13,555 nt of DNA from Promethearchaeia archaeon. Lineage in GTDB: Archaea > Asgardarchaeota > Lokiarchaeia > Sigyniarchaeales > SOKP01. Below, one piece after another: positions 2,750 to 13,555 of the stretch. The notes below the pieces were generated by a model that was not told the DNA's origin, searched no databases, and saw only the letters and a program-made list of their open reading frames with translations. The translations under genes and the position numbers were made by a program. Each line of letters begins with the position of its first letter. The stretch's first letter is position 1. The stretch spans positions 1 to 13,555 of the forward strand of contig JAWOFX010000143.1 in the NCBI GenBank assembly GCA_046497275.1, read 5' to 3'.

Positions 2750-3382
2750 TTATTCTTTTTTAATATTTCGATCTAAAAATTTTGGTATAAACATTGGCAC
2801 TTTTCTTTTATAATGAAGATATTCTTCACCAAACTCTTTTATAAGTTCCTTCTCTTCCTTCCAAGAGATCAAATAATTGTAAATAAATATTAATGGAGAG
2901 ATCAATATTGACAATAAGCCTGCAAATAAAAAGGAAAAAGCTAAATGAGCGATAATAGCTCCAAGATATTGTGGATGCCTGATTTGGGAATAAATTCCTT
3001 CTGAGATTACTTTATTTGCTTTATGGGTTTCAGAAACTTCTAATGTAGTTTCCTTAACACCCATGATTCCTAAATAAGAGCTGAGTATAATCATAGGAAT
3101 CGCAATTATTGTATGTATTAAATAAATTGGTATATTTAGGAAAGGAATAAATAAAATCTTAATATTTAGGAAAGAAAGGACAAAACGAGGTTGAGGTGAA
3201 AACCAAATACCAAATAAGTTTATAAAAAACCCCCACCCAGAAAATAGCCCTAAAAATTTGCCAATTCTAATACCTTTTCTATGCCCAAATCTTTCCTCAA
3301 GATTTATATGACTTACTGATAAAAAATGTATTGGAAGCAATAATAACAAAGAAATTAAGAAAATTATAAATAGTTTTGACAT
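2750..3382 (-). CDS. Isoprenylcysteine carboxyl methyltransferase / PEMT-family integral membrane SAM-dependent methyltransferase
   Basis: Several hydrophobic segments plus family motifs GIYSQIRHPQYLG and EEKELIKEFGEEYLHYKRKVPMFIP. The substrate cannot be assigned from sequence. Confidence 0.9.
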   Translation of the reverse strand: MSKLFIIFLISLLLLLPIHFLSVSHINLEERFGHRKGIRIGKFLGLFSGWGFFINLFGIWFSPQPRFVLSFLNIKILFIPFLNIPIYLIHTIIAIPMIILSSYLGIMGVKETTLEVSETHKANKVISEGIYSQIRHPQYLGAIIAHLAFSFLFAGLLSILISPLIFIYNYLISWKEEKELIKEFGEEYLHYKRKVPMFIPKFLDRNIKKE

Positions 3383-3553: not shown

Positions 3554-4198
3554 TTGGGGGATATCTTTAATGTTTTGGTGGTGGGTGTTGGTGGTCAAGG
3601 GGTTATACTAGTAGGAAATCTATTACGCCAATTTGGGCTTAAAAGTCCTTTTATAAAGAGTGTCGTAGGAACTGAAACTCGTGGAGTGTCTCAGAGAGAA
3701 GGGTCTGTTATAGCAACAGCAAGATATCTCATAGATAGTAAGATTTATAATCTTGATCAAGGATATGAGATTGATGATTTAATTTCTCCAATTATCCCAA
3801 TCAATGATGCTCATATAGTTTTAGGATTAGAACCATTAGAGACAATAAGAAATCTCAAATATATTTCTGAGCAAACTGTGGTAGTTTTAAATACAAATAG
3901 ACGCTATCCTCGAGATGCTGTGATAAAGAAAGGAGGAAGCAAAAATTATCCTCCTACAGCTCGAATTTTAGAGATTCTTGATCAGTTTGCCAGGAAAACA
4001 GTCTCTATGGACTTCAGTCGACTTAGTAATAGTGAATTTGGCAATTCGATTTATGCTAATACTATCATCTTGGGAGTTGCTACGAAAGAATTTGAGAATG
4101 TCTTTTTAAAAAAGAATTTCCTTAAAATTCTAAAAGACAATTTAAAACCTATAGGAGCAAATATTGAAGCATTTGAATTAGGATATAATCTAATTTAA
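3554..4198 (+). CDS. iorB: Indolepyruvate:ferredoxin oxidoreductase beta subunit (POR gamma-like), TTG start
   Basis: VVGVGGQGVIL, ETRGVSQREGSV, SP.IP...A..VLGLEPLE..R, N.IILG, N..AF..G motifs; lies next to iorA. Confidence 0.92.
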   Translation: MGDIFNVLVVGVGGQGVILVGNLLRQFGLKSPFIKSVVGTETRGVSQREGSVIATARYLIDSKIYNLDQGYEIDDLISPIIPINDAHIVLGLEPLETIRNLKYISEQTVVVLNTNRRYPRDAVIKKGGSKNYPPTARILEILDQFARKTVSMDFSRLSNSEFGNSIYANTIILGVATKEFENVFLKKNFLKILKDNLKPIGANIEAFELGYNLI

Positions 4199-4225: not shown

Positions 4226-6268
4226 CTAATCAAGGAATTCTATTTTAAAAGAACTTAAGTTTTCTTTTTCAATCTTAATTACTCGATATGCCCCAACTAT
4301 TTCTGGTTTTTTATAACTTCCTAATCCTAAGGAAGGAGTCTGGAGAATAAATGGTCCATTTTTTTTTATATCTTCTGGGTTATCATATTGTTCTGAATAT
4401 ATATCATAATACACAGCTGCAGGATTTTCAATTTTTCTTAAAATAAAGGGAGGCGCATCATAAACAGTAGATTTTTCTTTAGGTTCTCCTAATCTAAATT
4501 CTTTTAAGACATGAGTATGTCCTGACAATGCTAAAAGGGCATATTGTTTACAGAATTGAATTAATTTTTCCCAATTAGAAGACACCGTTCCGTATTTCAC
4601 ATTAAACGATTGATCTATCCTAGTTGAGACCGTTTCTTTACCTATTTTTTTAAGGATCGACTCTTTAAAATCATCGATCTTTTTTCTGATACTTGGTTTT
4701 CCTAATTCTTGAAGTCTTTTTCTAAAATATTTGTATTTTCCTATATTAATAGGCGGTCCGTGAATCAATAATATGATCTTTTTATTTGGATTGTATTTAT
4801 GATTGATAATATTTTCCAGATATTTTATTTGAATATCTTCTAAACCAGTCACAGACGGATGCCCAGATAGAAAATCTCTGAGATTTTTAAAAGAATCAGA
4901 TCCACTATTAAGGAAGATTAATTCGAAATCTCCTAAAGTTAGAGAGAAATCTAAAGACGGATTAATTTCTCTTAAATACCATTTTAAAGCTAAATTAGAT
5001 TTACTTATCGAATTTATAGGATTGGCGGAAAAAAGATCATTTAAAGCTGATGCTTCTGATGATTTAAGACCCATTTTCCTATATAATCCTCCCCATGTAA
5101 GATCATAATGATGAGGTCTAAAATCGTGATTTCCAACTATGGTGAATAATGGACACAATAGTTCCTGAGTTTCAGTTATTCCTTGATATTTTTGATTTGG
5201 TTGTTTATTTAGAATTATATCTTTAAATAATTTCCAATTTGTCTGATCATAATTTAATTGATTTAAATCATCAGTACTCTCAGAATATTCACTTTTAATT
5301 ACAAAATCAACCAAATCTCCCGTAATTATTACAAAATCTAATTCATTAGCCAATACTTTCTTGTTTATTATCTTGATTGCTTTTCTAAGTTGATTATTTG
5401 GATTAATAAAACGTTTTTCAAAACTTTTATTTAAGACCTTAGCTTCATGCTTGTTTAAATCCTCCTTATTGGATTCCTTTTTAAAAATAGATTTTATCAC
5501 GTTTGCTACACCATCTAAAAAAGTTCCTGCGTTCTCTTCACCTGATTCAGATTTCCATTTGGAAACAATTTCAAATATTTTATCATTTCGTTCTGCGAGA
5601 TGAGTATCTGTTATCTGAAAGAATGTAAAATCTTTCCATTTTTGTGTGGTTAAAATGAGAGAATGATAATTGATATGGATATTTGCTAGATTAATGTCAA
5701 ACATTACAAATTTATTTCCCTCAAAATAATCATTTATCTCTTTTGAAAGAAAAAACGATGCATTTATGCAAAAATAATAATTGAGATTATTGTAAACCTT
5801 CCATTCTTGTAGATAATATTGGGGATAACAATATTCATTCTCTAAAAAAGCTAATTCATCTATTTTTAACTTAGTTTTTTGTTCGATCTTATTGATTTTT
5901 ACCGCAATTGGGTCGCATCTATATCCTCTAGGTTCCAGTTTGCTTAATCTTTTTTTAATATCCTCTTCCTTCGAAGATTTTCGTGTAAAAATCTTTTTTA
6001 TGCGTTCCCATATTGTTTGCATTTTCTTCTTCTTTTCTTCCATTATTTTTTGAAGTTTCCATTTATATTCAATAATAGGAACAACTGAAAGATTGATTTC
6101 AAGGAACTTTTTAAGTTGATTGATATCATCAATATTAGAGGTTAAAAGCATTTGGAAGTCTATTGATTGCTTTTTTTTCTCGGCATTAATCCGAATAAAT
6201 TGAGGATGTCCTAAGTTTGGATTTACAAGTCTAATATTCTCAGTTTTAAAAATCTTTTTAGAATTCAA
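4226..6268 (-). CDS. Large calcineurin-like metallophosphoesterase with ~215-aa N-terminal extension (TTG start)
   Basis: All five metal-binding motifs in order: ITDTHL, ITGDLVD, VGNHD, LIHGP, SGHTH. Substrate unknown; start codon uncertain. Confidence 0.88.
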   Translation of the reverse strand: MNSKKIFKTENIRLVNPNLGHPQFIRINAEKKKQSIDFQMLLTSNIDDINQLKKFLEINLSVVPIIEYKWKLQKIMEEKKKKMQTIWERIKKIFTRKSSKEEDIKKRLSKLEPRGYRCDPIAVKINKIEQKTKLKIDELAFLENEYCYPQYYLQEWKVYNNLNYYFCINASFFLSKEINDYFEGNKFVMFDINLANIHINYHSLILTTQKWKDFTFFQITDTHLAERNDKIFEIVSKWKSESGEENAGTFLDGVANVIKSIFKKESNKEDLNKHEAKVLNKSFEKRFINPNNQLRKAIKIINKKVLANELDFVIITGDLVDFVIKSEYSESTDDLNQLNYDQTNWKLFKDIILNKQPNQKYQGITETQELLCPLFTIVGNHDFRPHHYDLTWGGLYRKMGLKSSEASALNDLFSANPINSISKSNLALKWYLREINPSLDFSLTLGDFELIFLNSGSDSFKNLRDFLSGHPSVTGLEDIQIKYLENIINHKYNPNKKIILLIHGPPINIGKYKYFRKRLQELGKPSIRKKIDDFKESILKKIGKETVSTRIDQSFNVKYGTVSSNWEKLIQFCKQYALLALSGHTHVLKEFRLGEPKEKSTVYDAPPFILRKIENPAAVYYDIYSEQYDNPEDIKKNGPFILQTPSLGLGSYKKPEIVGAYRVIKIEKENLSSFKIEFLD

Positions 6269-7087: not shown

Positions 7088-7981
7088 ATGAAGGATCAGG
7101 TCATTAATCTTAAGAATATACCAAGTTCTGAAGAAATGGAGGAATTTTTATCCGATTTAAATAATACTAATTTTCACAGAAACATTATACAAAACGCATT
7201 AAAAATAAGTAAGAAGATATCAGATGTAGAAGCAGCTTATCTATTGGGTTCATTGTCAGAGGGAAGTGGGGATATTTTTTCTGATATAGATTTTTATTTA
7301 ATGTATGAAGATGGAGGAGATTATAAAAAAATTCAAGAGTCATTTTTATCTATGATCGATGAATTAGGAGATATTATCCATATATTCCAATCTAACGCCA
7401 AAAAAAATAGTTCTATTATTTATTTAAAACCGTTTATCAAATTCGAATTAGTAATAGAAAAAGTTTCAAAGCTTAGTAATGAATGGAGAGTCCAAGAGCG
7501 TGGTTCATTACTCTATGATAAAAGAGGACTTGGTAAGGAAATAATTCAGAAATCCAAGCGTATTGAATTTAATATAGAGAATCATTTGGATGAAATTAGG
7601 AACATTGCTTTAGATCTCCCAAGTTTCTGTTTTCTTATTGCAGGTTATATGATACGAGGAGAATATATTACAACCATTGATTTTATAGCGTGGATTCGGA
7701 GAAAATTATTAAGAATTAGCGGTTTTTTACTTAATATAAAGGACGAAGGAACAAGAAGGGCTGAAGAACGTTTTCCTAAAGAATTGATTAATTATTATAA
7801 TAAATGTAGAGTGAAATCTAATGAAGAGATATGGGAATGTTTAAAAATTTTCTTAAGATGGTATTCGGAATGGTTAGTACCAAAATTCGAGAAAAAAAAT
7901 ATCATCCATGCAAATCAAGAAATTCCTATAATAGAATCTGCGATAGAAAAATTAAGAGATTCTTATTCCAATAAAATTTAG
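7088..7981 (+). CDS. DNA polymerase beta-superfamily nucleotidyltransferase with C-terminal helical bundle (LnuB/KNTase/aminoglycoside adenylyltransferase-like architecture)
   Basis: AAYLLGSLSEGSGDIFSDIDFYL = hG[S]-x-DhD signature; helical C-terminal half with R-x-E-x3-P (TRRAEERFP). Substrate unknown. Confidence 0.82.
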   Translation: MKDQVINLKNIPSSEEMEEFLSDLNNTNFHRNIIQNALKISKKISDVEAAYLLGSLSEGSGDIFSDIDFYLMYEDGGDYKKIQESFLSMIDELGDIIHIFQSNAKKNSSIIYLKPFIKFELVIEKVSKLSNEWRVQERGSLLYDKRGLGKEIIQKSKRIEFNIENHLDEIRNIALDLPSFCFLIAGYMIRGEYITTIDFIAWIRRKLLRISGFLLNIKDEGTRRAEERFPKELINYYNKCRVKSNEEIWECLKIFLRWYSEWLVPKFEKKNIIHANQEIPIIESAIEKLRDSYSNKI

Positions 7982-8050: not shown

Positions 8051-8602
8051 ATGGAATGGTTTAGTGCGGATTATCATTTATCCCATAAAAATATCATTAG
8101 ATATGTTGATAGACCCTTTGATGATGTGGATTTAATGGATGAAGTTATAATAAGTAATTTAGAATTAAGCGTGGATAAAGGCGATATTTTATATTACTTA
8201 GGTGATTTAACTTTCAAAAAGGAAACTGCTTTAAGATTTTTTGATCGTTTTCAAGATCTTAAAATTCATTATATAATTGGAAATCATGATAAAGAACAAA
8301 TCATCGAAATTGCGAGCAGATTTTGTGAGAGTGTTTCACATCTAAAAGATATATTATTATATGATCAAAATATAACGCTTTGCCATTATGCGATGAGAGT
8401 TTGGAATAAAAGCCATCTTAATTCTTGGCAGCTTTATGGACATTCTCATGGTTCTCTTAAACCATTAGGAAAACAATATGATGTTGGTGTAGATAATAAC
8501 GATTTCAAGCCTATATCTTTTAGCGAGATTCAAGAAATAATGGAAAAAGCACCCAATAATTTAAATTATATCCCTCCAGAAAAAAGAAAATCCAAACGAT
8601 AG
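8051..8602 (+). CDS. Small calcineurin-like phosphoesterase (COG4186/AQ1575-like family)
   Basis: WFSADYHLSHKNII...RPF, YYLGDL, IIGNHD, LCHYAM, LYGHSH, DVGVD motifs. Confidence 0.9.
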   Translation: MEWFSADYHLSHKNIIRYVDRPFDDVDLMDEVIISNLELSVDKGDILYYLGDLTFKKETALRFFDRFQDLKIHYIIGNHDKEQIIEIASRFCESVSHLKDILLYDQNITLCHYAMRVWNKSHLNSWQLYGHSHGSLKPLGKQYDVGVDNNDFKPISFSEIQEIMEKAPNNLNYIPPEKRKSKR

Positions 8603-8732
8603 CTATTTTGGAAAACATGACCTTAAATGAGTCATCGCTGAAAATTTTTTATGTTATTATATGTTTATTTTCTTAAAGATTAATTTTTATATTGGACCCG
8701 TGGCCCAGACTGGACAAGGCAGCGCCCTCCTA

Positions 8733-8749
8733 AGGCTAAGGCCTGAGAT
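8733..8749 (+). other. tRNA intron 1, canonical 37/38 position, 17 nt (AGGCTAAGGCCTGAGAT)
   Basis: BHB-like: bulges T36-A37-A and A-T-A38; central helix CTCC/TGAG with one C-T mismatch; outer helix GGC/GCC closing a TAAG loop. Confidence 0.9.
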
Positions 8750-8771
8750 AGGCGAAGATCGGGAGTTCAAA

Positions 8772-8805
8772 GCAGGATTCGGCTCATTTCGAGTGTCTGT
8801 GAGAA
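8772..8805 (+). other. tRNA intron 2, non-canonical T-loop position 59/60, 34 nt
   Basis: Full BHB: central helix TTCA(54-57)/TGAG(8800-8803); bulges A58-A59-G and A-A-T60; outer helix CAGG/TCTG; internal hairpin GCTC-ATTTC-GAGT. Confidence 0.9.
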
Positions 8806-8862
8806 TCTCCCCGGGTCCGCTTTACTATTATAATTAATAGGGTTATCGTCAATTGATTTTAC

Positions 8863-9306
8863 TCATGGCAAAAAGTGTTTTAAAAATTTCATAACATCTC
8901 TTAATTCATTTTTTTTCAAATCCATTATAAAACGAGTCGCATTCACACTAGCCAAGAGAGCATTATCAGATTCACGAAAAAGATTATGATGAAAAGTAAT
9001 AGAATTTTTTCCTATTTTTTCTATATTTGTCCTAATTATAATATAGGCTCCAAATTTTGCCGAGTTTTCATAAGTTATATTTACATGTTTTACGCCAAGA
9101 GCAATATCCTCATAGATTAATTCTTCTACTCTCTTTGATGCACCTAAGGAATTCATAAAACTAACGAATCCGTCATCAAAATACATAAAGTAGTTCATAA
9201 AATGCACTACTCCCATAGCATCTGTGTCATTAAATCTCACTTTTATTTTAGTGACATCTTGATGGTTTAGGAGTTTAGTCTTAATATCATCTTCGCTATT
9301 CTTCAT
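8863..9306 (-). CDS. Hot-dog fold acyl-CoA thioesterase (4HBT/YbgC/FadM family)
   Basis: KVRFNDTDAMGVVHFMNYFMYFD signature and typical length of 147 aa. Confidence 0.9.
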   Translation of the reverse strand: MKNSEDDIKTKLLNHQDVTKIKVRFNDTDAMGVVHFMNYFMYFDDGFVSFMNSLGASKRVEELIYEDIALGVKHVNITYENSAKFGAYIIIRTNIEKIGKNSITFHHNLFRESDNALLASVNATRFIMDLKKNELRDVMKFLKHFLP

Positions 9307-9660
9307 CCTAATTAAATTTTAGTTCTTAAGCTTAATAAATTATTTGAATTCGAGGAATTTCATATATATACTTAAAATAAAACTTTTTTGAATTTTTTGA
9401 GATAATTTTAGTATCTACTAATCTATAACACTTTAGTAAATAATTTTAAATATAACTTCATCTGATTCTATATTTAAATATAAGTTATGTTTTAATATTC
9501 AATTAATTAATATTGAAAAAAATAAAAATAAATCACTTAGACTATCAAAATTAATTAACAAAAAGCGACTCAGATAAGTCCTTATTATTTTCCTTTCCCT
9601 ATTTATATCTAACCATCTTTTTTTCCAATATTAACCAAAAAATACAAATAGGCTTAAAAT

Positions 9661-12600
9661 ATGGAACTTAAAAATACTGACTTTAAAAGTTTAACTGAAA
9701 ATAAAAGGTTAACATTTTTAGTGGGAGCTGGCTGTTCTATAGATGCTCCATCTTGTCTTCCTGCAGGAAGAGAAATGATGGATGCTCTTGTGAAATATTC
9801 CTGTGCTGAATCTGAAATTGAAACTCTTCTTTCTCTGGATCAACTTCGATTTGAGCAATTAGTGGAAATTATAAGGGATATATTAGATCCTTCTCTTAAA
9901 ATCATAGATTATTATAGTGAATGTGATGAGCCGAATCTTCAGCATTTTTATTTGGCACAAATGCTCCAAAAAGGACATTTCTTGATGACTACAAATTTTG
10001 ATTTTCTTTTGGAATATGCTTTGAAGCAATCAGGAATCCCAATAGAGGAGATTATTCCAGTAATCACTAAGAATGATTTCGAGAAATATTCTAATCCCTC
10101 GGTATTATTGAAGGAAAAGAAGAAACTTATATATAAAATTCATGGATCGACTAGAAATGTGATCATAAATGAAGATACAAGAGATTCCTTAATTGCAACT
10201 ATTCAAGCTTTTGGTTCTGGCAAAGAAGGAGAAAGTGTTTTTCAATTAGAGCCTTATAAACGTGAATTTTTTGAAAATATATCAAAAAACCGATCAATTG
10301 TAGTGATGGGATACTCCGGTAGTGACGATTTTGATGTGGTTCCCACATTAAAACTCTTAGAGAATGTTCTGGATATAATTTGGATAAAATATAAAGCAGA
10401 TGATAAAGGTAAAGAAGATATCTACCAAATATATGATTCAGATATAAATAATATCAATGATGTAGATAAGATCGATCAGATATTAAAAGATTTCTATAAA
10501 ATAGGCAATGTTAAAAATATATATAGTGTAGAGGTTAATACTACCAGACTAGTAAATAAATTACTAGAAAAAGAAATCATACAAGGCAATGAAGGGAAGG
10601 CTATAGATCCTTTGAAGTGGCTTAAAGAAAATCTCAGAAAACCTAATGAATTTGAAAAATATCTAATTCCTTCTAAAATTTATGACAAATTCCATATGTA
10701 TAAGAATGATATGAGATGCGAAAGAAAAATATTAGAATTGGCCAATAATAAACAAAATTCACAATATAAATCTGTAGCTTATCAAAATTTAGGACAAATT
10801 GAATTCAATAGAGGAGATCTAATAGAATCCTTAAAATATTTTGAGAAGGCATTAGAAATCAATGATGAGTTGGGAAATCTCTTAGGCAAATCTCTAGCTA
10901 ATAATTATATTGGACAAATTCATTATAAGAATGGAAATCTTTCCATGGCAATGAAATATTATAAAAAAGCGCTAAAAATTCATGAACATCTTGATAATCC
11001 TGAGATTAAATCTAAGATCATCAATAATATTGGCATTATCTATCTTTTACAAGAGAATTATCAAGAAGCTTTGGGATGGTTTAAAAAACTACTTATTCAA
11101 ACGGAAAAATCAGGAGATTTAATTGGTAAAGCAGTCTCTCTTGATCATATTGGGCAAATTTATGAATCTCAAGGTAATTATTCTAAGGCATTAGAAATTT
11201 ATGAGGAAGGTTTAACTATCGTTGATAAATTAAATGATTTATATTTGAAGGCTAGTTTTCTAGAAACAATCAGTGTTTTGTTCCATAACCAAAACCAATA
11301 TAATAAAGCATTATTAAATCTAGAGAAGGCAGTTGTACTCTATGAAAAATTAAATCTCGAATATGAAAGAGCACATTGTCTCAGCAATATTGGAAACATT
11401 TATGAAATCAATGGAAATTATCAACAAGCAGTGAAGTATTATGAAGAGTGTCTTGTAGCGCATGAAAAAATAAATAAGCCTTCAGAAAGAGCTATAATTA
11501 ATAATAATTTAGGGACATTGCAATTCAATCTTGGAAATTACTCAGAAGCTTTAAAACAATATGAATTAGCTATCAAGATTTTTGATGACTTAGATAATCT
11601 TTCAGAAAAATTAGATATTCTTAATAATTCAGCAGTTTTATTATACAATCAAGGTAATCTAGATAAAGCAATAGAAAAGTGCGAGGAAATGTTATTGATC
11701 GCAGAAAGGCTTGGTAATCTGTCAAAAAAGGCTGAAGTTCTTAATCATATAGGTTTAATATATTTTAATCAAAATAAATACACTGAGGCATTAAAACATT
11801 ATGAAGAAGCAATAAGACTATATGATCAATTAAAAGATTTACCAAACAAAGCCAAAGTCCTTGATCATACAAGTCAGATCTATTTCAACCAAGGAGATCT
11901 CTCAAAGACTTTAGAGATTTGTGATAAATTAGTGAAAATTTATGATAATTTGGATAATCCTAAAAAAAAAGCAATATCAATATATAAGATGGGACAAGTA
12001 TATGAAGTGCTTAAAGATTACCCAAATGCTCTAAAAAAATTTAATGAGATGATACCAATCATTGATCAATTGGGTGATTTATTGAGTAAAACGGATATAT
12101 TTTTAAAAATAGCCCAAATTCAGTTTCATATAAATGAAAACCTTCCTGAGACAATTAATAAATGTGAAAATGGAATCGAACTTGCCGAAAAACTAGGAGA
12201 TATTCAAAAAAAGGTTCAGTTTCTTGATTTGTTAGGAAAATTACATTTACAACAGAACAATTATTTTGATGCTTTAAAGATCTATGATAATGTAATTCAT
12301 ATTCATGAAAAACAAGGTAATAAATTAGAAAAAGGAATAGCCCACAACTTCTTGGGACAGATCTATTTTAAAATTGTTTTATCCTATGCAAAAGGCATCC
12401 CACTTAGGGAGGAATATTATAATAAATCTTTAAAGAATTATAAGGAAGCCCTCAGAATTTGTCAAGAGTTAGGAAATAAAACCGAAATGATTAATATACT
12501 CTATAATATCGGTACACTCTATGAAGTTGAAGACAAACTTTCTGATGCTTTAAATCTTTATGAAAAAGCTGTTGAATTCGCTCAAGAAACCAAGAATGAA

Positions 12601-12771
12601 GCAAAAGAAGCGATAGGAATGTGGTGGATTGGTTCCATATATTCGAAATTACATCAGAAAGAAAAAGCAATTGAATATCTCAATAAAGCTGCAGAAAAAT
12701 ATGACCAATTATACTTATTTGATCAACTTAAAAAGATCCAAGAACAGATAAAAAATATAAAAAACCATTAA
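9661..12771 (+). CDS. SIR2-like (SIR2_2-type) NAD-consuming domain fused to a long TPR array, 1036 aa
   Basis: FLVGAGCS (G22), TTNFD (N112), YKIHGS (H161), VVMGYSGSDDFD (G217); TPR array from aa 371 to near the C-terminus; no P-loop seen. Confidence 0.9.
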   Translation: MELKNTDFKSLTENKRLTFLVGAGCSIDAPSCLPAGREMMDALVKYSCAESEIETLLSLDQLRFEQLVEIIRDILDPSLKIIDYYSECDEPNLQHFYLAQMLQKGHFLMTTNFDFLLEYALKQSGIPIEEIIPVITKNDFEKYSNPSVLLKEKKKLIYKIHGSTRNVIINEDTRDSLIATIQAFGSGKEGESVFQLEPYKREFFENISKNRSIVVMGYSGSDDFDVVPTLKLLENVLDIIWIKYKADDKGKEDIYQIYDSDINNINDVDKIDQILKDFYKIGNVKNIYSVEVNTTRLVNKLLEKEIIQGNEGKAIDPLKWLKENLRKPNEFEKYLIPSKIYDKFHMYKNDMRCERKILELANNKQNSQYKSVAYQNLGQIEFNRGDLIESLKYFEKALEINDELGNLLGKSLANNYIGQIHYKNGNLSMAMKYYKKALKIHEHLDNPEIKSKIINNIGIIYLLQENYQEALGWFKKLLIQTEKSGDLIGKAVSLDHIGQIYESQGNYSKALEIYEEGLTIVDKLNDLYLKASFLETISVLFHNQNQYNKALLNLEKAVVLYEKLNLEYERAHCLSNIGNIYEINGNYQQAVKYYEECLVAHEKINKPSERAIINNNLGTLQFNLGNYSEALKQYELAIKIFDDLDNLSEKLDILNNSAVLLYNQGNLDKAIEKCEEMLLIAERLGNLSKKAEVLNHIGLIYFNQNKYTEALKHYEEAIRLYDQLKDLPNKAKVLDHTSQIYFNQGDLSKTLEICDKLVKIYDNLDNPKKKAISIYKMGQVYEVLKDYPNALKKFNEMIPIIDQLGDLLSKTDIFLKIAQIQFHINENLPETINKCENGIELAEKLGDIQKKVQFLDLLGKLHLQQNNYFDALKIYDNVIHIHEKQGNKLEKGIAHNFLGQIYFKIVLSYAKGIPLREEYYNKSLKNYKEALRICQELGNKTEMINILYNIGTLYEVEDKLSDALNLYEKAVEFAQETKNEAKEAIGMWWIGSIYSKLHQKEKAIEYLNKAAEKYDQLYLFDQLKKIQEQIKNIKNH
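10771..12729 (+). repeat. 16 tandem TPR-like repeats of 40-aa periodicity (protein-level repeat, nucleotide-divergent)
   Basis: Manual parse: 14 units of 40 aa, one of 41 aa (unit 12) and one of 52 aa (unit 14) = 653 aa. Consensus A..L..IG.IY...GNY..AL..YE.AL.I.E.L.....K. A degenerate 17th unit may precede the array. Confidence 0.9.
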
Positions 12772-12885
12772 AATAAAATTATTGATCTATTATCTAAAAA
12801 TTTTAGGTTTGTCAGATATTATAGGTAAGGATAACTTGATATTAGTCAGATTTAGTAGCATAATTACTTTTTAAATTTATTTTTT

Positions 12886-13344
12886 TTAAAAAAGAAGATC
12901 CTTAAATCGTTCTTTTACAGATAATTTTAAGTTTTTAATTAATTTATCCACACGTGGTTTAAATTCTTCAAAATATTTTGCATCTTTAGTAAAAATATCA
13001 TAAACCGCAAATCTATTGGTGAATTGATTCAATACTTCTTTTAAGAGAGGTTTTATATTCTTTTCCTCTTTATCATCGTCAATAATACAATAACTAATAA
13101 GTGCTTTCTTTTCCTTAGGTTCTGTAAAAGTCTCCATTATAATACTATAAATAACCATCTGGTAATCCTCCATTTTCACCATATTTAAATCGCCACCGAA
13201 AAGATCTTTGGAAAACTCGTCCAATGTAGAAATAAACCCAGCTCTCAAATCAGCATTTATACTATGATCATTTTCTTGAGAATAATATTTAATTAGGAGG
13301 AGATTCTTTTGTCCCAAATTGATACCGAATTCTAAAATTGTCAT
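12886..13344 (-). CDS. Stand-alone longin-domain protein (Asgard-type)
   Basis: Beta-hairpin start (ILEFGINLG..LLLIKYY), helix DLRAGFISTLDEFSKDL, strands LNMVKMEDYQMVIY and LISYCIID, then helices ending YFEEFKPRVDKLI. This is the pattern of small longin-fold proteins, recognised by eye. Confidence 0.7.
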   Translation of the reverse strand: MTILEFGINLGQKNLLLIKYYSQENDHSINADLRAGFISTLDEFSKDLFGGDLNMVKMEDYQMVIYSIIMETFTEPKEKKALISYCIIDDDKEEKNIKPLLKEVLNQFTNRFAVYDIFTKDAKYFEEFKPRVDKLIKNLKLSVKERFKDLLF

Positions 13345-13555
13345 TATTTGAAATTTAGAAAAGTGACTGAATATTTTATTTTTTAAAGGAAATACTATTT
13401 TTTAAAATTTAGTTTATAATTTCTTAATATTTTGCTGCAATTTGAAATAAAAAGCAATTAAATTTAATTTTTAAACTTATCATGAGTTTTTCCTTTGAAA
13501 TTAATATATAGATTATAAAGGATTTAGATTTTCATTTAAAAGAAGAAAATTTATT

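Follow-up and report, generated by a model that had tools for sequence, protein, structure and literature searches.

The protein encoded at positions 9661–12771 (+ strand) of contig JAWOFX010000143.1 of a Promethearchaeia archaeon is a member of an Asgard family, here termed SIR2-TPR, in which a head of about 345 residues is followed directly by tetratricopeptide repeats (TPRs) of the TPR_12 type. The window analyzed here is the entire contig of 13,555 bp, part of a 3.85-Mb genome with 30% GC. The SIR2-TPR gene, monocistronic and 1036 codons long plus stop according to the list of open reading frames (ORFs) and its translation, starts at a codon that fits the N-termini of its homologues, the alignments of which begin at residue 1. 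SIR2_2 (SIRim) NADases are core effectors of bacterial antiviral immunity, with the human relatives FAM118A/B. In archaea, and particularly in the Asgard lineages related to eukaryotes, little work has addressed how these effectors are connected to sensors. The family described here would couple effector and TPR sensor directly; the NTPase switch known from Avs and NLR proteins is missing from it. We consider the chances about even that the protein is a receptor that consumes NAD+ upon ligand binding and is triggered by conflict or stress, and a trigger of this kind (virus, mobile element or damage) seems somewhat more probable than a purely housekeeping trigger.

The head (9661–10575, + strand; residues 1–305) is a SIR2_2/SIRim sirtuin domain: Pfam SIR2_2 (PF13289) matches residues 108–223 at 46.9 bits, well above the cut-off of 24.5, and the domain combines a Rossmann fold and a conserved NAD pocket with the absence of a zinc module. 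SIRim proteins have been delimited by a Rossmann sheet of at least seven strands, a helical small domain and the lack of a zinc-binding module (10.1101/2024.09.18.613514; PMC12700824), and the head presents a sheet of at least seven strands, a helical insert at residues 32–103 and no zinc module. The AlphaFold2 (AF2) model of residues 1–345, based on a 47-sequence alignment (predicted local distance difference test score, pLDDT, 81.5; predicted template modeling score, pTM, 0.82), places strands at residues 17–21, 107–110, 131–134, 155–158, 212–216, 236–244, 253–257 and 284–292 and helices within 32–103. The last three of these strands and the helices belonging to them add to the Rossmann sheet, and solved defense SIR2 structures align over head residues 1 to about 305–311. 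What the original prediction had taken for a linker of about 100 residues is mostly the remainder of the SIR2 fold, which runs to about residue 305 with strands and helices over 236–305, and a helical connector is left only at about 317–344. The predicted absence of zinc-binding cysteine pairs, on the other hand, was confirmed, as the head has four cysteines (25, 32, 48 and 88) and no CxxC pair. These four cysteines were considered as a metal site and rejected: they are near-invariant in the close subfamily only, and the wider set keeps just C25.

The catalytic set of the head is intact, with all its motifs encoded on the + strand. The glycine-rich NAD-binding loop GAGCS (9724–9738; residues 22–26, with GAG at 22–24) is followed by TTNFD with the catalytic Asn112 and Asp114 (9988–10002; residues 110–114), by HGS with the catalytic His161 (10141–10149; residues 161–163) and by the strand-loop motif GYSGSDDFD of the NAD pocket (10309–10335; residues 217–225). 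G22, A23, G24, S26, N112, D114 and H161 are invariant in both family alignments (47 and 27 members), and N112 and H161 stand at the very positions given for them in the original prediction. The GYSGSDDFD block is largely invariant in the 47-member alignment, where G217, Y218, S219, G220, D222, D223, F224 and D225 do not vary. H161 is taken, by motif, to be the counterpart of the histidine altered in the solved DSR2 H171A and KomBC H146N entries. A word-seeded search with the head retrieved 431 proteins, the best 120 of which are all SIR2_2 plus TPR proteins of 570–1324 residues, corresponding to about 6–24 repeats; both catalytic motifs are kept in 118 of these 120 nearest homologues. Since N112, D114, H161 and the GAGxS loop are invariant and the motifs are so widely kept, the head is probably under selection for catalysis. 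The same invariance speaks against a catalytically silent scaffold, in which the head would only sense NAD+ or another nucleotide and the protein would serve as a TPR adaptor: TPR arrays can serve as scaffolds by themselves, nothing more specific points to such a role, and we regard it as very improbable.

The structures closest to the modeled head are all antiphage proteins. The best comparison was obtained with the SIR2-APAZ protein of SPARSA (8y80; root-mean-square deviation of 3.7 Å over 259 residues; structural-comparison value of 18.4), followed by ThsA (15.4), KomC (15.2), DSR2 (14.9) and SIR2-HerA (13.3), while the values for Avs5 (12.9), FAM118B (11.8) and the deacylase SIRT3 (11.4) were lower. 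A phmmer search of the PDB with the head sequence returned nothing relevant, and the family profile matched only SIR2-HerA among PDB sequences (E 0.004), with TTNYD and HGS of its sirtuin (8w9l) aligned to TTNFD and HGS of the Asgard head. As the PDB sequence searches gave nothing beyond this match, the kinship of the head to solved proteins rests on the fold.

The head is joined by a short connector (10576–10698, + strand; residues 306–346), which consists of a loop and two helices (317–324 and 330–343) in the AF2 secondary structure, to the TPR_12-type array (10699–12765, + strand; residues 347–1035). Pfam TPR_12 was detected at 2.4e-76, with dense TPR_12, TPR_1 and TPR_2 matches over residues of about 360–1030, and the self-identity of the repeats is 25.5% at a lag of 40 residues vs. 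approximately 5–13% at other lags. In the full-length AF2 model (pLDDT 88.7, pTM 0.60; pLDDT mostly above 90 in the repeat region), 35 helices between residues 347 and 1035 form about 17 hairpins, 14 of them in strict 40-residue register, so that the 16 regular TPR units counted earlier were about right. Foldseek matches of this model are the TPR superhelices of LGN/Pins, Ctr9, Ski3 and OGT and not full-length DSR2; the tail is thus predicted with high confidence to be a TPR superhelix resembling the peptide-binding TPRs of the LGN type. A Pfam scan of the protein found no NTPase family and no P-loop domain, and since the connector comprises only residues 306–346, there is no room for an NTPase, in agreement with the earlier claim that an NTPase/STAND module is missing.

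Based on this architecture, we propose that the C-terminal TPR superhelix, with its approximately 17 repeats, serves as the binding site of a ligand (a protein or peptide), and that ligand binding controls the N-terminal SIR2_2 domain, which would then consume NAD+. The reaction would most likely be that of an NAD+ glycohydrolase, with products of the ADP-ribose type. Activation would probably occur via a ligand-driven change of the oligomeric state that gathers SIR2 heads, in analogy with every characterized SIRim enzyme: antiphage sirtuins are activated through multimerization, as found for ThsA, DSR2, Avs5, SIR2-HerA and FAM118B (PMC12700824; PMC11850899). Neither an NTPase switch nor a partner gene would be needed. 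We infer NADase activity, ligand gating, oligomerization and the nature of the trigger, and an immune role of the SIR2-TPR protein is plausible.

The family is large and almost confined to Asgard archaea. When 1.84 billion cluster representatives were searched exhaustively, 1909 matched at E ≤ 1e-3, of which 358 reached E ≤ 1e-30, with the head of approximately 340 residues matched as one unit. In the ESM Atlas, the corresponding cluster comprises 356 members, of which 98% are from Archaea (TM 0.84). Named homologues come from Promethearchaeota, Lokiarchaeota, Hodarchaeota and Hermodarchaeota, which bears out the Asgard-type origin proposed from the DNA alone. Among 41 related genomes, a match was present in 30, with 0–15 matches per genome, and four of the 16 genomes in this set with at least 90% completeness and at most 5% contamination had none. 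The strict single-copy vertical conservation considered in the original prediction is therefore not what was found: copy number varies from 0 to 15, the gene shows syntenic presence and absence within the genus, and a truncated remnant remains in a relative. In the genome of the window, a second SIR2-TPR gene encodes a protein of 812 residues (C20: 20289–22727; L014 10290–12728) with a head approximately 35–39% identical; it lies between the genes of an ADP-forming acyl-CoA synthetase and an AMP-forming acetyl-CoA synthetase. We also considered whether this genome encodes a larger set of effector-TPR proteins and rejected the idea, as only four of its ORFs have similar TPR_12 arrays, namely the two SIR2-TPR genes and two coding for proteins that consist essentially of TPRs, one of which also has a short zinc ribbon. 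Two deep clades are seen in a maximum-likelihood tree of 43 heads, which comprises cross-genome groups as well as an expansion specific to one genome (G007) that includes a tandem pair. Some members have added or swapped modules: N-terminal leucine-rich repeats (LRR), an E2 domain (UQ_con), TBP or DUF4062, or C-terminal LRR after the TPRs. The members in question are P0152, P0136, P0127, P0149, P0176 and P0104, with the fusions given as called, so that they may be gene-calling artifacts.

Sequence divergence is distributed unevenly between the two parts of the protein. Identity to the 120 nearest homologues is 53–62% in the head and 24–44% in the TPRs, and recent paralogues of G007 are 77–79% identical in the head and 55–57% in the TPRs; for the one pair in which both could be estimated, dN was 0.12 for the head vs. 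0.30 for the TPRs. The orthologues were compared in three species sharing a syntenic Fer4 / SIR2-TPR / GAPDH ... DUF87 / M42 arrangement. Because the G007 paralogues differ mainly in the TPRs and the syntenic orthologues are constrained in both domains, the sensor appears to diverge after duplication and to be conserved from then on, rather than to diversify continuously. Paralogues with a conserved head and differing TPR arrays, each array conserved once fixed, would amount to a germline receptor repertoire in which each receptor is tuned to a conserved ligand. In its most explicit form, this would be a repertoire of NTPase-independent pattern-recognition receptors, in which each TPR array reads a different conserved protein of a virus or mobile element and directly switches on NAD+ destruction; we put this forward tentatively, as a rather unlikely version of the proposal.

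Several observations weigh against a receptor triggered by conflict or stress. Between the syntenic orthologues, identity is 79–83% in the head and 76–85% in the TPRs, as compared to 72–94% for the flanking genes, and omega is approximately 0.10–0.17 in both domains (about 0.10–0.14 in the TPRs), values that are rough since dS is saturated. The TPRs of orthologues thus seem to evolve no faster than the head and to be constrained like flanking housekeeping genes, which is not the pattern of an arms race. Moreover, the genome of the window has only two SIR2-TPR copies. The genomic neighborhoods point in the same direction. We surveyed 40 loci in 19 genomes, 36 of them with callable genes on both sides, which gave 72 immediate and 69 second-ring neighbors (141 in total), and used as controls 68 neighbors of random genes in related genomes, several of which had also been sampled. 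The number of PADLOC models matched was 21 for the 72 inner neighbors and 46 for the 69 second-ring neighbors, each model being matched by a single protein, and 56 for the 68 controls; hence there is no enrichment of defense models over controls among the 141 neighbors, and the expected association with defense islands was not observed. No Pfam family occurs in more than two of the 72 inner neighbors, so that there is no recurrent partner; the window neighbors of the gene, a thioesterase and a 152-residue protein of unknown kind, have no PADLOC match; and the five annotated SIR2-TPR contexts are metabolic. Additionally, 55 pattern matches on IMG/VR viral contigs yielded no relatives, as none was confirmed by tblastn. 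The immune receptor of the original prediction thus stands with regard to its design, i.e., a SIRim head, a TPR superhelix and a single chain without NTPase, whereas its immune role gained no support from a defense-island link, a partner or viral relatives. The lack of an operon partner, also stated there, holds true: the upstream thioesterase gene is divergent at a distance of 354 bp and the downstream gene is convergent.

The same data bear on a narrower version of the receptor proposal, namely a dedicated antiviral abortive-infection protein of the DSR2 type, whose TPRs would recognize an Asgard virus through one of its structural proteins and whose head would deplete NAD+, by which the cell is killed or arrested. 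The architecture is parallel, with N-terminal SIR2 and a C-terminal alpha-solenoid sensor (PMC11850899), and the antiphage nature of the nearest head structures is in line with it, as are the patchy distribution, the lineage-specific expansions including the tandem pair of G007 and the remnant pseudogene in one relative. One copy in the same genus stands beside a retron: in G005, a clade-B SIR2-TPR gene (779 residues; L025 10201–12540) is convergent with and abuts a complete type XIII retron (contig C7; L025 12631–18977, − strand; RT_XIII 1e-158, SWIM_XIII 7e-176, WGR_XIII 5e-17). However, the protein has no DSR1/DSR2 sequence membership, no MID domain and TPRs in place of a HEAT-like solenoid, and to this are added the lack of defense-island enrichment, orthologous TPRs that are conserved instead of diversifying and the absence of viral homologues or decoys on IMG/VR contigs. 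Within the receptor proposal, we consider this version possible but doubtful.

Alternatively, the protein might be a non-immune regulatory enzyme, in which the TPRs recruit a conserved cellular client or complex and the head modifies this client by ADP-ribosylation or deacylation or tunes local NAD+/ADP-ribose. Such an enzyme would be part of the expanded eukaryote-like signaling repertoire of Asgard archaea, with a possible link to acyl-CoA or central metabolism. It would account for orthologues that have stayed in synteny, are inherited vertically and show purifying selection in head and TPRs alike, and for housekeeping neighborhoods without defense enrichment over controls; furthermore, the window copy stands beside an acyl-CoA thioesterase and the second copy between ADP-forming and AMP-forming acyl-CoA synthetases, and fusions to an E2 ubiquitin-conjugating domain or TBP occur in some members. 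Contrarily, the zinc module, which is reported to be required for canonical deacetylation and missing from SIR2_2 proteins (PMC12700824), is absent from the head, and the score on the NCBI deacylase model NF001752 was 17.7 bits vs. a cut-off of 221. The gene is lacking in 11 of the 41 related genomes, including four of the 16 high-quality ones, the number of matches varies between 0 and 15 among genomes, presence, absence and decay are seen within one genus, and the acyl-CoA link is anecdotal and does not recur among the 72 neighbors. Taken together, we regard the regulatory enzyme as a substantial alternative of less than even probability, and the ligand-gated receptor with a conflict or stress trigger as the preferred proposal.

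The presence/absence variation of the gene is seen directly in the genus of the window. A block of 4.07 kb (8822–12886), delimited by tblastn synteny and blastn break points, comprises the 4HBT-family thioesterase gene (8863–9306, − strand; Pfam 4HBT_2 at 7e-15), the AT-rich divergent intergenic region (9307–9660) and the SIR2-TPR gene. In the same-genus genome G002, collinearity with the window extends from a gene of the indolepyruvate/pyruvate:ferredoxin oxidoreductase (IOR)-like type through a 183-residue metallophosphatase and an intron-bearing tRNA, and resumes at the 152-residue ORF, with only 62 bp in place of 8822–12886 (window 8402–8821 corresponds to L024 9378–9815, and window 12887–13431 to L024 9878–10418). 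The tRNA gene (8694–8819, + strand), with its 3' end at the left edge of the indel and the left break 2 nt past it, was missed by ARAGORN and by the default Rfam filters and detected by a focused Rfam search, in which the whole 71-position model RF00005 matched over 126 nt at 30.2 bits; it is 85% identical in G002, and the equivalent gap of G005 has no tRNA. In G001 (C214), the thioesterase gene adjoins a 126-residue SIR2 remnant, which is 66% identical over residues 11–100 and cut before TTNFD; an adjacency of thioesterase and SIR2-TPR genes was found only in the window and, beside this remnant, in G001. The presence/absence block next to a tRNA gene, the remnant in G001 and the retron-adjacent copy in G005 are signs of gene flux that count in favor of the receptor proposal. 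On the other side, the 4-kb block has no integrase, no att-like repeat (including a direct repeat of the tRNA 3' end) and no GC or compositional anomaly, so that it may be either an insertion here or a simple deletion in G002.

Regarding the surroundings of the block, the thioesterase was rejected as a functional partner since its context differs in each of four same-genus genomes, and the metallophosphatase was rejected as a recurrent partner since in G004 it is followed by ABC transporter genes. The latter gene (8051–8602, + strand), a small metallophosphoesterase gene, forms an adjacent pair with a gene for a Polbeta-type nucleotidyltransferase of 297 residues (7088–7981, + strand); the pair is kept in G002 and occurs twice in G004, and neither protein has a PADLOC match. 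Further upstream, a 680-residue calcineurin-like phosphoesterase (4226–6268, − strand) is 63% identical in G002, and its Metallophos match spans residues 217–586 vs. 191 positions of the model, which implies large insertions. The IOR-like alpha (675–2744) and gamma (3554–4198) genes are split by an opposite-strand membrane methyltransferase gene of the PEMT/ICMT type (2750–3382), in the same order as in G002. Beside the thioesterase and SIR2 remnant of G001 (C214), a protein of 745 residues (L023 394–2631, − strand) combines a RelA/SpoT nucleotidyltransferase head with TPR-S repeats as sensor (PADLOC PDC-S33 3e-13) and represents another single-chain effector-TPR design.

The family is abundant in Asgard genomes, with 358 sequence clusters at E ≤ 1e-30, and either outcome would be informative. 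If its members are immune proteins, they would constitute an archaeal class of single-chain receptors and a test case for the evolution of conserved-ligand recognition, with paralogues diverging and orthologues fixed. If the repertoire proposal is true, the closest lineage to eukaryotes would have an archaeal counterpart, of simpler design, to the immunity conferred by Avs and NLR proteins. If they are regulatory, an 'immune-type' NADase head would operate in ordinary Asgard signaling, a warning that SIR2_2 proteins should not all be taken for defense genes.

When compared to known systems, the protein is distinct from DSR2 and apparently undescribed, as had been suggested. A PADLOC scan with the whole protein and with residues 1–330 matched only the generic SIR2, Aga_SIR2, PDC-S65 and ThsA1 models at E 1e-10 or weaker, with a best match of 8e-10 to the Argonaute-associated SIR2 model and no DSR1 or DSR2 model among the matches; no NCBIfam model reached its cut-off; and the term 'SIR2-TPR' was found in no paper of the literature library searched. 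DSR2 of Bacillus subtilis (PDB 8wy8, 8wyb, 8wkt) shares the order of N-terminal SIR2 and C-terminal alpha-solenoid sensor, which in DSR2, a tetramer whose SIR2 heads are clustered, binds the activating phage tail tube protein, whereas the Asgard protein lacks the MID domain and has a canonical 40-residue TPR_12 array vs. the HEAT-like repeats of DSR2 (PMC11850899); moreover, it is archaeal, stands outside a defense-island setting and is not matched by DSR profiles. The SIR2-APAZ protein of the short-pAgo system SPARSA (PDB 8y80, 8jl0, 8jkz) shares the SIR2 fold with marginal sequence similarity (E 0.48 with the family profile), but the SIR2-TPR protein has no APAZ domain and the window no Argonaute gene. 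In Avs5 / SIR2-STAND (PDB 9jap, 9nc9), a STAND NTPase lies between head and sensor, where the Asgard protein has only about 40 residues. As compared to ThsA of Thoeris (PDB 7uxt, 8bto, 6lhx), the Asgard protein has neither a SLOG or Macro domain nor a TIR (ThsB) neighbor, and its C-terminus consists of TPRs. Canonical sirtuin deacylases (CobB/Sir2, PF02146) possess a zinc ribbon of two CxxC pairs, of which the Asgard head has none, and PF02146 is not among the Pfam matches of the protein.

The two-part architecture without NTPase is also seen in bacterial SIR2_2-TPR proteins of Bacteroidota, Bacillota and Pseudomonadota (ESM Atlas clusters), which form separate sequence clusters of mostly shorter proteins (420–880 residues) with head TM-scores by query of approximately 0.59–0.62, and among which we found no characterized member. 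For human FAM118B/SIRanc and eukaryotic SIRim proteins, the present comparisons gave no sign of a specific kinship to the Asgard head; FAM118B is a stand-alone head and forms filaments. In the legend of a published SIR2_2 tree, some members are labeled as carrying TPR domains, and none of those labeled there is a characterized archaeal protein (PMC12700824). TPR-like or NLR modules have also been shown for SIRim proteins of eukaryotes, in a study that characterizes no such archaeal protein (10.1101/2024.09.18.613514), and the Asgard SIR2-TPR proteins are possibly related to those eukaryotic SIRim proteins that are fused to TPRs.

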